From a phage, in the sequence record PZ476263.1: a DNA stretch of 64,000 nucleotides; one strand, 5' to 3'. The notes below the pieces were generated by a model. The model saw only the letters and a program-made list of their open reading frames with translations. It was not told the origin of the DNA and made no database searches. Position numbers and translations under genes: made by a program. Below, one piece after another: positions 53,696 through 56,420 of the stretch (position 1 is the first letter of the stretch; every line of letters starts with the position of its first letter).

Positions 53696-54050
53696 ATGTC
53701 TGCTACATTCGCACCTGCGAGTCGCAAGCAACAAATGGTTCTCGAATCTACAGCACAGATTATGGTAATAGGTGGTGCAGCAGGATCAGGTAAATCATAC
53801 CTTTTACAGTTGATGCCTTTGCTTATTGTAAACGACCCTAAAACAGCCTGCATCATGTTTCGTCGTACTGTACCGCAGATTCGTGGACAAGGTGGCTTGT
53901 TTGACAAAGCTAAAGATATTTATAACCAGCTGCCTCCGGTAGTTAAGCCGAAGTTTAAAGAGAACGAGATGACTGCTACATTCCCTAACGGAGCAACCGT
54001 TAAGTGGCAGTCTATGCAACACGTAAGTGATAAATACGACATCCAGGGGT
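53696..54050 (+). CDS. terminase large subunit, exon 1 (ATPase N-terminal part with Walker A)
   Basis: SD aaggag; Walker A VIGGAAGSGKS; reading frame hits TAA at 54050-52; exon proposed to end at the U of that codon (…ggggt|). Confidence 0.65.
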
Positions 54051-54960
54051 AAAAATTTCCTGCCCATCGTATCTTAATCGGTGAAACTCTGTTATAATAA
54101 GTACAGACAATACCGAGATCCATTACCTGAAATGACAGTAGGGAGATATGATGAAAAAATTTGAAATTGTTCCAAGCAAACCTGAATTTTCCGTAAGTGA
54201 AGACGGGCTGATTATGTTTACCTCTACAGGTACTATTCTTAAGCCGTATGTTGATAAGGATGGTTACCACAGGGTTAGAAATTTCTCTGCTGGAGGTAAA
54301 TCTCATTACATCGCCGTTCATCGCGCCGTTGCTGAGGTTTTTGTTAAAAACCCTAACCCAAAAGTGTTTAAGATTGTTAATCACTTGGATAATGTTAAGA
54401 GCAACAATCATAAAACCAATTTGGAATGGACAACCGAATCATTAAACCGAGTTCATGCAGTTCATGCCAACGGTACAGCATCTGTTAGAAACAATGTTAA
54501 ATTTACAGAAGGTCAAGTCAGAAAGGTGTGTGAACTTTTGAGCTTGGGCTATCGGATAGTTGATATTGTGAAACTTACAGGCGTTGATAGATTCAATGTG
54601 ATGGCAATTAGAAGCGGAAAATCTTGGGTTCAGATCTCTTGTGAGTTTGAAACTTTAAAAGTAGAAAGAAAAGATACACTGTCTGAAAAGACGATTCTTT
54701 GGATTAAAGACCAAATTAATCGCCAAAGGTCAGATGATGAAATACTTTTAATGTCGGTAAGACTTACAAAAGAAGAGCTTGAAAGAGCAAAGAAGATTAT
54801 TTCATTGATGGATTGTAACGACTAATGCTGATGAGTGTAAGCATGTAGGGCCAAGCGGTCCGAAACGATACGCCAAGGATGGAAGATATAGTCTGAACTA
54901 TATGGTGACATATAGCTGCTTAAGCAGGGTTAAGATTAGCGATCTTAATCGAACACAATG
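54051..54960 (+). mobile_element. group I intron 1 (td-like) carrying an HNH homing endonuclease ORF
   Basis: 5' exon ends in U able to pair with a gccc guide at 54062-65; R-like gtaacgactaa (54815-25) and S-like gaagatatagtc (54883-94); 3' end …gatcttaatcgaacacaatG resembles the recalled T4 td intron terminus. Confidence 0.55.
54148..54825 (+). CDS. HNH homing endonuclease (intron-encoded)
   Basis: IVNHLDNVKSNNHKTNLEWTT is a classic HNH_3 homing-endonuclease motif; own SD agggag; stop codon lies in the intron R-like element. Confidence 0.7.
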   Translation: MMKKFEIVPSKPEFSVSEDGLIMFTSTGTILKPYVDKDGYHRVRNFSAGGKSHYIAVHRAVAEVFVKNPNPKVFKIVNHLDNVKSNNHKTNLEWTTESLNRVHAVHANGTASVRNNVKFTEGQVRKVCELLSLGYRIVDIVKLTGVDRFNVMAIRSGKSWVQISCEFETLKVERKDTLSEKTILWIKDQINRQRSDDEILLMSVRLTKEELERAKKIISLMDCND

Positions 54961-55014
54961 TGGAATTTACATTTATAGGTGTGGACGAAGGCACTCAGTT
55001 TGAGTGGGAGCAGT
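54961..55014 (+). CDS. terminase large subunit, exon 2 (54-nt micro-exon encoding the Walker B-like FIGVDEG)
   Basis: In the exon-1 phase this reads (L)EFTFIGVDEGTQFEWEQ; ends in U able to pair with gctgc at 55021-25. Confidence 0.5.
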
Positions 55015-55341
55015 TAATCTAGCTGCCTCGTACAGTAATGTACGATGAGAAATTCTTGTGAATTGCTGGAAAATCCTTAGAGCTTGTAAAACTACAACAT
55101 GACCTGCAAAGGTGAGTGTGAATGTTAAAAATTTACAAGATTGGACGATCAGCCTCCAAGCCTCTTTACGAGAGGAAGGTTCAACGACTAGCCGAAAGGC
55201 GTAGATCATAAGCAAATGATGATCGAAGTGCAAGACCCCTACCTTATTGGTAGGGTGAAGATATAGTCTGATCTGCATGGTAACATGCAGCAGTGCTTGA
55301 GTGCACGGCAACGAACTTGCGATCCGTTGCGAACATAACAG
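55015..55341 (+). mobile_element. group I intron 2 (ORF-less, td-like)
   Basis: Begins taatc… like the td intron; P-like aattgctggaaaa (55061), Q-like atcagcc (~55150), R-like gttcaacgactag (55179), S-like gaagatatagtc (55258), ends …gcgaacataacaG. Confidence 0.55.
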
Positions 55342-56420
55342 TAGAATACATGATGTCTCGTCTTCGTTCCAGTTCTTCTTACCCTTCACGAATGGTAATT
55401 AGTTGTAACCCTGATCCTGATCATTATCTTCGTAAGATGGTTGATTGGTATCTCGATAAGGATGGTTATCCTGATCCTACAAAGGATGGAGTCATTCGAT
55501 ATTTCGTTCGAGTTGATGACCAATACATGTGGGGCGAATCAGTAGAAGAGCTTAAGAAGCGGTACGGTAAGAAATGTAAGCCTGTTTCTTTTACATTTAT
55601 ATCTTCTACTATTTACGATAACCCACCAATGCTTATTAACAACCCAGACTATCTAGCACAGCTGGAAGGTCTTAATGAGGTTGACAGAGCAAGACTGTTA
55701 CACGGCAACTGGGATGCACGTCCTCAGGGTGCTAACTATTTTAAACGTTCTTTTCTTAAAGAGGTTGATGTTCTTCCTTTAGGTGTAGATAAGGTTAGAT
55801 CATACGATAAAGCAGGAACTGAACGTTCTACAGGTAATAAAACACCTGACTTTACAGCCGGAATCGGTGTGGCGAGAGATCAGGACGGAATTTATTATCT
55901 TTTTGGCGATTATTGTGAAGAGTTTGTTGATGAAGGTGATTGGTCTACTGGCAACCTTGGTAGGTTCTGTAAGAAAGCTGGTGAACGAGATACGATCATT
56001 ATGAAACAAGCAATTCATGACGGTGATGATGTTAGAATAATATTCCCTGTTGACCCTGGTCAAGCGGGTATTGCTGAATTCACTACATCTTCCCGAGAAT
56101 TATTAAATCAAGGATTCATTGTTGAGAAAGACCCAACTCCTGGTAACAAGAAGAAGCTTGTACGCTTCTCTCCGTTTGCTAACCTTGCTCAGAACGGATT
56201 TGTTAGGATTGTTAAAAAGTCTTTCCCTTTGGATACCTATGAAGCATTAATGAAAGAGCTTGAATCTTTCAATGGTGAAAGGTCAACAGGGACACGTAAA
56301 GATGACTGGGTGGATGCTATCTCAACCGGAATAAATTTCCTTGAGAAAACAGAAATAGTCAGGGCTGTTACAATACCACGACCTTCTGCCCCAACACTTT
56401 ATTCGAAGTATCGACGATAA
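55342..56420 (+). CDS. terminase large subunit, exon 3 (remaining ATPase and nuclease domains)
   Basis: Continues in phase (L)EYMMSRLRSSSSYPSRMVISCNPDPDHY…; 359 codons to TAA at 56418-20; immediately upstream of the portal gene. Confidence 0.65.

Follow-up and report, generated by a model that had tools for sequence, protein, structure and literature searches.

Group I introns have reportedly been known in terminase genes since 1995, when Mikkonen and Alatossava described one in the large terminase (TerL) gene of phage LL-H. In LL-H and in the Bastillevirinae, lineages with Gram-positive hosts that are unrelated to the phage considered here, TerL genes are split by one to three group I introns, which splice in vitro and in vivo. 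Bastillevirinae such as SIOphi carry two or three of them, and skipping of an internal exon occurs in SIOphi (PMC11878797). Within the Vequintavirinae, the TerL gene of rV5 (Vequintavirus), 'ORF64ABC', comprises three segments with the HNH protein gp066 (Kropinski et al. 2013, PMC3606486) and is annotated as a three-part join in the RefSeq record, and the HNH-bearing TerL intron of phage CB7 was shown by reverse-transcription PCR to be spliced (Buttimer et al. 2020, PMC7344957). Here we describe the TerL gene, encoding the large terminase of DNA packaging, at positions 53696-56420 of a 64,000-nucleotide (nt) stretch of phage DNA (sequence record PZ476263.1; the whole stretch is called the window). 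The gene lies in three pieces, exons E1, E2 and E3, separated by the interruptions IVS1 and IVS2 (Table 1). It is very probably split by two group I introns, the removal of which restores a frame of 495 amino acids (aa), with IVS1 being mobile by means of an HNH endonuclease encoded within it.

The window shares with rV5 the subfamily, the gene and a layout of three exons and two group I introns, one without an open reading frame (ORF; 84.9 bits in rV5) and one bearing an HNH gene. The ORF-less intron 1 of rV5 lies in the Walker B region, aligns to IVS2 over its full length, is of similar length and has a 3' tail in common with it, GAACAUAA. The insertion sites differ, being after codon 129 (DEG/TQ) and at 227/228 in rV5 but at 118/119 and 136/137 in the window; the order is reversed, with the HNH intron of rV5 being the downstream one; the two HNH proteins are about 34% identical; and the internal exon of rV5 has about 98 codons, compared with 18 in the window. 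The Pectobacterium phages CB7 and phiTE (Certrevirus) belong to the same subfamily, encode a TerL that is 83% identical in amino acids and likewise have the Walker B segment interrupted by a group I intron that bears an HNH ORF. Theirs, however, is a single intron at 127/128 (GVD/EG), inside what is E2 of the window, with a different HNH ORF of 501 nt; the same site holds an ORF-less intron in two metagenomic relatives of the window, L031 and L032. The arrangement is not new, as rV5 and CB7 precede it. Relative to everything compared, the novelty lies in both insertion sites, in an internal exon of 18 codons and in the occurrence, across the group, of four distinct sites within 54 nt of Walker B coding sequence.

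Joined conceptually, the exons (53696-54050, 54961-55014 and 55342-56420) give 1488 nt and 495 aa, with no frameshifts or stops. The nearest database relative, the Escherichia phage UPEC06 (Vequintavirinae), has an uninterrupted TerL coding sequence (CDS) of 1488 nt and 495 aa, to which the spliced product aligns without gaps, with 461 of 496 positions identical (93%) and the same residues across both junctions (DIQG/LEF and WEQ/LEY). This gapless alignment fixes the junctions to the base, and a one-base ambiguity at IVS2 is resolved by the requirement of group I introns for a U at the end of the 5' exon and a G at their own end; both junctions interrupt codons, in phase 1. Pfam Terminase_6N, which scores 22 and 34.5 bits in the pieces, rises to 82.2 bits in the spliced protein (cut-off 22; model positions 2-212), where Terminase_6C scores 29.8 bits (cut-off 22.6). 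Differences from UPEC06 in the exons number 39, 16 and 201 at codon positions 1, 2 and 3, which indicates that the spliced frame is under purifying selection. The locus had been read beforehand from its letters and ORFs, and this sequence-only reading holds for the exons: the Walker A frame (53696-54052, 118 aa, with VIGGAAGSGKS) runs into an in-frame TAA at 54050-54052, coding for LEFTFIGVDEGTQFEWEQ is found only at 54961-55014 with the remainder from 55342, and the product put at about 495 aa has exactly that length. The spliced protein is also collinear with intact terminases, as had been anticipated, and keeps the normal order and spacing of Walker A and Walker B.

IVS2 scores 78.7 bits against the full Rfam group I intron model RF00028 (positions 1-253; E-value 2.5e-18), for which the gathering score is 50. 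It is 80% identical to the same-site intron of the metagenomic locus L032 and is related to the ORF-less TerL intron 1 of rV5 and to an intron in the primase region of Escherichia phage W70 (OP778610), a Vequintavirinae relative. In W70 (L005, about 2307-2582), a group I intron of 70.4 bits lies upstream of the primase/helicase CDS, and a separate HNH gene lies downstream of that CDS.

With the ORF deleted, the unconstrained minimum free energy fold of IVS1 is a full group I core (z = -3.48; 0 of 200 shuffles fold as well), with the helix order P1, P3, P4, P5, P6, P7.1, P7.2, P3', P8, P9, P9.1 and P9.2 and no P2. We evaluated covariation in an alignment of five ORF-deleted introns from the same site, namely the window and its metagenomic relatives L031-L034; a MAFFT alignment with more distant introns, in which the 5' half was scrambled, was excluded from the pair counts. 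With the P7 pseudoknot included, 95.8% of cells pair in this structure, compared with 31-38% when partners are slid by 1-3 columns, a figure inflated by derivation of the structure from the window sequence, which does not inflate the compensatory counts. Compensatory changes occur in 23 of 62 pairs (two each in P3, P5, P7, P7.1, P7.2 and P9, five in P6 and six in P9.2), and none of 500 shuffles attains the observed value on any of five covariation measures.

The 3' core of IVS1 has about 70% identity with nrdD introns of the Felix O1 type and with an intron in a Vibrio phage tape-measure gene. The nrdD intron of the Felix O1-type phage EC6 (L003, 1341-1656) is, within the phage collection, among the closest relatives of the IVS1 ribozyme (about 70% over the 3' 140 nt), has the same helix order (no P2, P3-P6, P7.1, P7.2, P9.1, P9.2) and passes the Rfam cut-off; it differs in being ORF-less, in residing in an anaerobic ribonucleotide reductase gene and in having a normal 7-bp P8. 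The Vibrio phage vB_CoeS_P1 (PV206818; L004, 1865-3051) has four back-to-back group I introns (73.7, 70.0, 50.2 and 63.4 bits, none below the Rfam gathering score), which are unannotated and separate the halves in which its tape-measure gene is annotated; the IVS1 3' core is closely related to the first of them. Phage T4S1 (PQ867852; L002; Zobellviridae, from oysters) matches the IVS1 core over 40 nt (97.5%) and has a primase/helicase split around an HNH gene.

Each intron places a U.G pair at its 5' splice site, has a P10 of 4 bp and ends in G. The two also have the exact 12-mer AAGATATAGTCT in common, which occurs at 54883 in IVS1 and at 55258 in IVS2 and nowhere else in the window, and a permissive Rfam scan of the whole 64 kb yielded no group I introns beyond these two. 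Extra hairpins P7.1 and P7.2 mark subgroup IA (td-like) introns in the classification of Michel and Westhof. IVS1 and IVS2 both carry them between P7 and the 3' strand of P3, with co-variation in IVS1, which places the two introns in subgroup IA. Features of the group I classes are summarized in PMC3984707. We rejected the idea that the insertion sites are repeats of each other, which would explain a double invasion through one endonuclease or guide: of 14 core positions, 9 agree between the sites, a score equalled at three unrelated places in the TerL gene, and the ribozymes belong to different sub-lineages.

Splice-site pairings exactly at the protein-defined junctions of two group I ribozymes argue against the idea that the TerL pieces are translated separately, unspliced, and assemble into a working terminase, which we consider exceedingly improbable. 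A precedent is Aeromonas phage Aeh1, in which an nrdA split by mobE works as separate pieces according to its citation in PMC7344957, and one HNH-associated interruption in CB7 was reported as unspliced (PMC7344957). E1 has its own stop codon, and the E3 frame has in-frame Met codons near its start (ORF 55293-56420 contains MMSRL). Yet E2 has neither a Shine-Dalgarno sequence nor a plausible start, and all 18 of its residues are identical to those of UPEC06 despite 10 differences in 54 nt (hand count); moreover, separate translation would lose residues, because both junctions lie inside codons. In-frame stops, insert lengths and the ribozyme evidence exclude an intein, a frameshift or translational bypassing. 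The pattern observed at the locus is far beyond chance, given the E-value of IVS2 and the gapless alignment of the spliced product, and we infer, by analogy with the TerL HNH intron of CB7, which is spliced in vivo, that both introns are spliced and that splicing is autocatalytic.

A single pre-mRNA would carry the TerL exons and both introns, each folding into a td-like core (P3-P9 with P7.1 and P7.2). In each intron an external guanosine would attack the phosphate after the U of the U.G pair in P1, and the exons would then be joined after the terminal G of the intron, guided by P10; removal of both introns would restore the TerL frame.

The ORF of IVS1 begins in the P6 loop, and its last seven codons overlap the 3' strand of P6, J6/7 and the 5' strand of P7. 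Positions 54814-54825, UGU-AAC-GAC-UAA (C-N-D-stop), are at once the end of the frame and J6/7 plus the P7 5' strand of the ribozyme core, with the TAA (54823-54825) overlapping the final two bases of that strand (the R element). Among 30 homologs of the HNH protein, down to about 40% identity, the C-terminus is exactly CND in 11 and has xND near the end in 20, a recurrence that points to an old and conserved overlap of ORF and ribozyme; across the family, the RNA core seems to determine how the protein ends. The protein matches PHROG family phrog_59 (HNH endonuclease, 1.3e-30) and, with an E-value of 3.6e-12, the nicking endonuclease I-HmuI (PDB 1U3E), which is encoded in the DNA polymerase intron of Bacillus phage SPO1. 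An AlphaFold (AF2) model built on the 30 homologs has a predicted local distance difference test score (pLDDT) of 90.5, and in a Foldseek search its sole match with an E-value below 0.001 is 1u3e_M (6.3e-09, probability 1.00, 174 aligned columns, all I-HmuI residues). The target template-modelling (TM) score is 0.52; the root-mean-square deviation is high (8.1), as one would expect of a model made without DNA for an extended protein of several domains. H79, N91 and N100, the H-N-N motif, are invariant in the 30 homologs and align with H75, N87 and N96 of I-HmuI (numbered by our own count from the alignment). Like I-HmuI, the protein is encoded by a phage group I intron and has an N-terminal beta-sheet DNA-binding region; it differs in having about 24% identity, 51 additional residues and additional C-terminal helices. 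By sequence and predicted fold, the product is an I-HmuI-like HNH homing endonuclease, and we infer its activity and cut site.

What the sequence-only reading had claimed for the introns stands with some corrections. The I-HmuI match, in sequence and in predicted fold, supports its proposal of an HNH homing endonuclease in the first intron, and the ORF does have its own Shine-Dalgarno sequence and a stop in the R-like element. The two 3' cores, described there as near-identical and td-like, have the 12-mer in common, but their tails resemble each other less closely than that (gaacacaatg versus gaacataacag). Both 5' exons do end in a U that pairs with a nearby guide (U54050.G54062 and U55014.G55022), although the gctgc guide begins at 55022 and not at 55021. 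The proposed RF00028 model is matched above threshold by IVS2 and only in part by IVS1, as expected with an ORF in P6; assignment of IVS1 to group I is supported by the ORF-deleted fold and by covariation that includes the P7 pseudoknot.

HNH nucleases cooperate with terminases in HK97-like phages (Kala et al. 2014, as cited in PMC7344957), and the HNH ORF of the window is embedded in a terminase gene; it could on these grounds be a packaging accessory nuclease that is merely located in TerL, an idea that the CB7 authors discuss (PMC7344957). We hold this to be extremely unlikely. The protein matches the intron-encoded nicking endonuclease I-HmuI over the full length of the latter, the C-terminus of its family is encoded by the P7 strand of a ribozyme, and it is missing from the six closest phages, whose intact TerL thus do without it.

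As a homing endonuclease, the HNH protein would nick the intron-less TerL genes of co-infecting relatives near codon 118/119, and recombinational repair would copy IVS1 and adjacent exon sequence into the recipient. IVS2, being without an ORF, could spread only passively, for example together with IVS1, which lies 54 bp away, through co-conversion, with the help of an endonuclease acting in trans, or by reverse splicing. Presence and absence of introns among relatives bear on this mobility. TerL is uninterrupted in each of the six genes that come closest to it in the phage collection (92.5-92.9% identical in amino acids). It is likewise uninterrupted in 57 of the 60 nearest database records, among which only phiTE and CB7 have a split TerL. 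A scan of IMG/VR yielded 21 TerL relatives, none with the introns of the window; all were uninterrupted apart from phiTE.

A search with the intron-encoded protein recovered metagenomic homologs at 96, 75, 68, 60 and 57% identity. In L031-L034, the HNH ORF resides in an insert of 906-916 nt that interrupts TerL where IVS1 does, one nucleotide past codon 118, and TerL in these four is about 62-99% identical to that of the window; as in the window, each intact TerL gene adjoins an intact portal gene. The HNH intron is constant at 118/119, and the second intron is variable: L034 has none; L031 has an ORF-less one at 127/128 (84.4 bits) and none at 136/137; L032 has introns at both 127/128 (92.7 bits) and 136/137 (69.3 bits) beside its HNH intron (29.9 bits, partial); and in L033 the second intron bears an ORF and lies at 258/259. 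In L032 (Logan SRR21707705_1055, 3818-4475), three group I introns fall within 54 nt of TerL coding sequence, leaving micro-exons of 26 nt (3818-3843) and 28 nt (4126-4153).

L031 (Logan SRR15410242_247, 1168-3830) is about 98% identical to the window (53696-56420) in the upstream region and flanks, E1 and E3. Identity falls to 75% in the HNH ORF and to 86-88% in the micro-exon region, and the second intron is a different one at another site. Differences between the two HNH ORFs number 53, 30 and 113 at the three codon positions, a third-position bias. Homing with co-conversion of flanking exon sequence leaves a sharp local drop in identity at the intron site (PMC3984707). On genomes that are otherwise nearly identical, the intron cassette thus seems to have been swapped, in a pattern that is the expected signature of independent homing with co-conversion. 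Together with the occupation of the same site in TerL genes of 62-99% identity, this is indirect evidence for homing, short of proof that the endonuclease of the window is itself active.

Several points weigh against two functional introns and a functional endonuclease, besides the inflated pairing figure given above. IVS1 matches RF00028 only in its P7-P9 half (23.6 bits on 54793-54915), short of the gathering score; the model cannot bridge the 678-nt ORF that interrupts P6, which accounts for the low score, and the same-site homologs in L031 and L032 score 36.3 and 29.9 bits. The P8 of IVS1 is reduced to CCAAGGAUGG, unusually small for a core helix, whereas related introns have a P8 of 5-7 bp, and splicing might for this reason need a protein factor. 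The Rfam alignment of IVS2 starts P1 at 54986, inside E2, unlike the P1 that we assigned from the protein-defined junction and the U.G rule. Pfam scores of the HNH protein are below the curated cut-offs (NUMOD4 18.8 versus 23.4 bits, HNH_3 16.6 versus 24.8 bits), and it has Asn before the catalytic His where I-HmuI has Asp. Viability of the phage is an assumption.

These observations leave some room for a dead or decaying TerL, in which at least one intron no longer splices and the genome is defective; the 2-3-bp P8, the sub-threshold score of IVS1 and the absence from the records of an HNH protein identical to this one could be read in that way. Such decay is nevertheless very unlikely. P8 in this lineage is a conserved CCAAGGANGG (54873-54882 in the window), with two invariant C-G pairs and a third pair in one of five sequences. 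Five intron copies have kept it while their ORFs diverged to 57% identity, and all five reside in intact TerL genes next to intact portal genes, so the short form appears to be tolerated and to have persisted under selection. The exons of the window have no frameshifts or stops and a strong third-position bias, and all other core helices of IVS1 co-vary.

Across the Vequintavirinae-like phages, the sites within the 54 nt of E2 are 118/119, 127/128, 129/130 and 136/137, occupied in varied combinations of up to three (in L032). A more speculative view, which we regard as unlikely, is that this Walker B segment is a contested landing strip for rival intron and endonuclease lineages, and that the micro-exon layout is perhaps functional. 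If so, a second intron 26-54 bp downstream of the HNH intron could disrupt or displace the recognition sequence of a rival endonuclease and thereby confer immunity. Skipping of E2, from the 5' splice site of IVS1 to the 3' splice site of IVS2, stays in frame and gives a 477-aa TerL without Walker B. Such an isoform would be dead as an ATPase and could poison packaging or set its timing; the exon skipping reported for SIOphi TerL would be a comparable case.

The locus reveals no new mechanism; what we also count as new is the apparent turnover of introns around Walker B. TerL was already recognized as a gene that group I introns invade, and the locus adds two insertion sites to it. Automatic gene calling would yield 'terminase' fragments of 118 aa and 375 aa and a stray HNH gene, missing the 18-codon Walker B exon. 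TerL is a standard phylogenetic marker for tailed phages, so unrecognized introns and co-converted exon tracts would distort trees. Together with its metagenomic relatives, the locus lends itself to the study of homing, co-conversion and interference between introns in a compact natural setting: near-identical backbones carry differing sets of introns, as many as three of them within 54 nt, and exons can be as short as 26-28 nt.

Table 1 Coordinates of the exons, introns, ribozyme helices and HNH ORF of the split TerL gene (window numbering).
Feature	Position	Strand	Description	Basis
TerL exon 1 (E1)	53696-54050	+	355 nt; codons 1-118 and first base of codon 119; Walker A GAAGSGKS; ends in U54050	Pfam Terminase_6N positions 2-91; aligned to UPEC06 TerL residues 1-118; ORF list
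IVS1	54051-54960	+	910-nt group I intron; P7.1/P7.2, without P2; ORF in P6 loop; terminal G54960	
IVS1 P1 hairpin	54047-54065	+	GGGUA 54047-54051/UGCCC 54061-54065; U54050.G54062 wobble at 5' splice site; strands checked for complementarity by script	
IVS1 P10	54057-54060 with 54962-54965		UUCC with GGAA of E2	Complementarity checked by script
IVS1 5' core	54068-54125	+	P3 5' 54068-73; P4 54078-83/54111-16; P5 54088-92/54103-07; P6 5' 54118-25	
HNH ORF	54148-54825	+	225 aa, 678 nt; I-HmuI-like, NUMOD4 and HNH_3; Shine-Dalgarno GGGAG 54140-54144	
IVS1 3' core	54806-54960	+	P6 3' 54806-13; P7 54819-24/54889-95; P7.1 54825-29/54840-44; P7.2 54848-52/54857-61	
IVS1 3' core, remainder			P3 3' 54867-72; vestigial P8 54873-75/54880-82; J8/7 AAGAUA; P9 54898-904/54909-15	
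IVS1 3' end helices			P9.1 54916-19/54924-27; P9.2 54928-36/54942-50	
TerL exon 2 (E2)	54961-55014	+	54-nt micro-exon, (L)EFTFIGVDEGTQFEWEQ; Walker B/catalytic Glu; starts in codon phase 1; ends in U55014	Match to UPEC06 residues 119-137 (tblastn)
IVS2	55015-55341	+	327-nt group I intron without meaningful ORF; terminal G55341	
IVS2 P1	55010-14/55022-26		GCAGU/GCUGC; U55014.G55022	Complementarity checked by script
IVS2 P10	55018-21 with 55342-45		UCUA with UAGA of E3	Complementarity checked by script
IVS2 P2-P6			P2 55029-35/55038-44; P3 55054-58/55231-35; P4 55064-69/55149-54; extended P5/P5a; P6 55160-65/55171-76	P2-P4 and P6 checked by script
IVS2 P7-P8			P7 55185-90/55264-70; P7.1 55191-93/55198-200 (GCC-GAAA-GGC); P7.2 55204-09/55219-24; P8 55237-43/55249-55	P7, P7.2 and P8 checked by script; P7.1 by eye
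IVS2 P9-P9.2			P9 55273-79/55284-90; P9.1; P9.2	Checked by script
TerL exon 3 (E3)	55342-56420	+	1079 nt; remaining ATPase domain and RNaseH-like nuclease domain; stop 56418-56420	Pfam Terminase_6N positions 115-212 and Terminase_6C; aligned to UPEC06 residues 137-495

Judged by its sequence, the window is from a Vequintavirinae-type myophage, about 83% identical in nucleotides to UPEC06; its best phage-database matches are at about that level. The TerL start at 53696 is preceded by the ribosome-binding site AAGGAG and, further 5', by a terminator-like hairpin (53606-53631), and a portal gene (56430-57962, phrog_113) lies 3' of TerL. An overlapping Rz-like spanin pair (52913-53302 and 53299-53598) lies between the hairpin and an upstream cluster of tRNA genes (Met 51065, Tyr 51947, Gly 52494, Gln 52668 and Pro 52748), which also has a weak tRNA-like match, from Rfam only, at 50967-51045. 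The gene order of tRNAs, spanins, TerL and portal is the same in rV5-like phages.

Sub-threshold matches to RF04354 (Plastid-ycf2 5'UTR) occur antisense to tRNA-Met in the window (51065-51138, minus strand) and in rV5 (L029, 11-83, minus strand), and are almost certainly false positives from tRNA-like structure. In L034 (Logan SRR19414403_15157), a 409-aa gene with a match to Pfam Gad2 (PF26128) lies three genes upstream of TerL (367-1596), in the variable region between tRNAs and lysis genes, and may have a role in defence or counter-defence.

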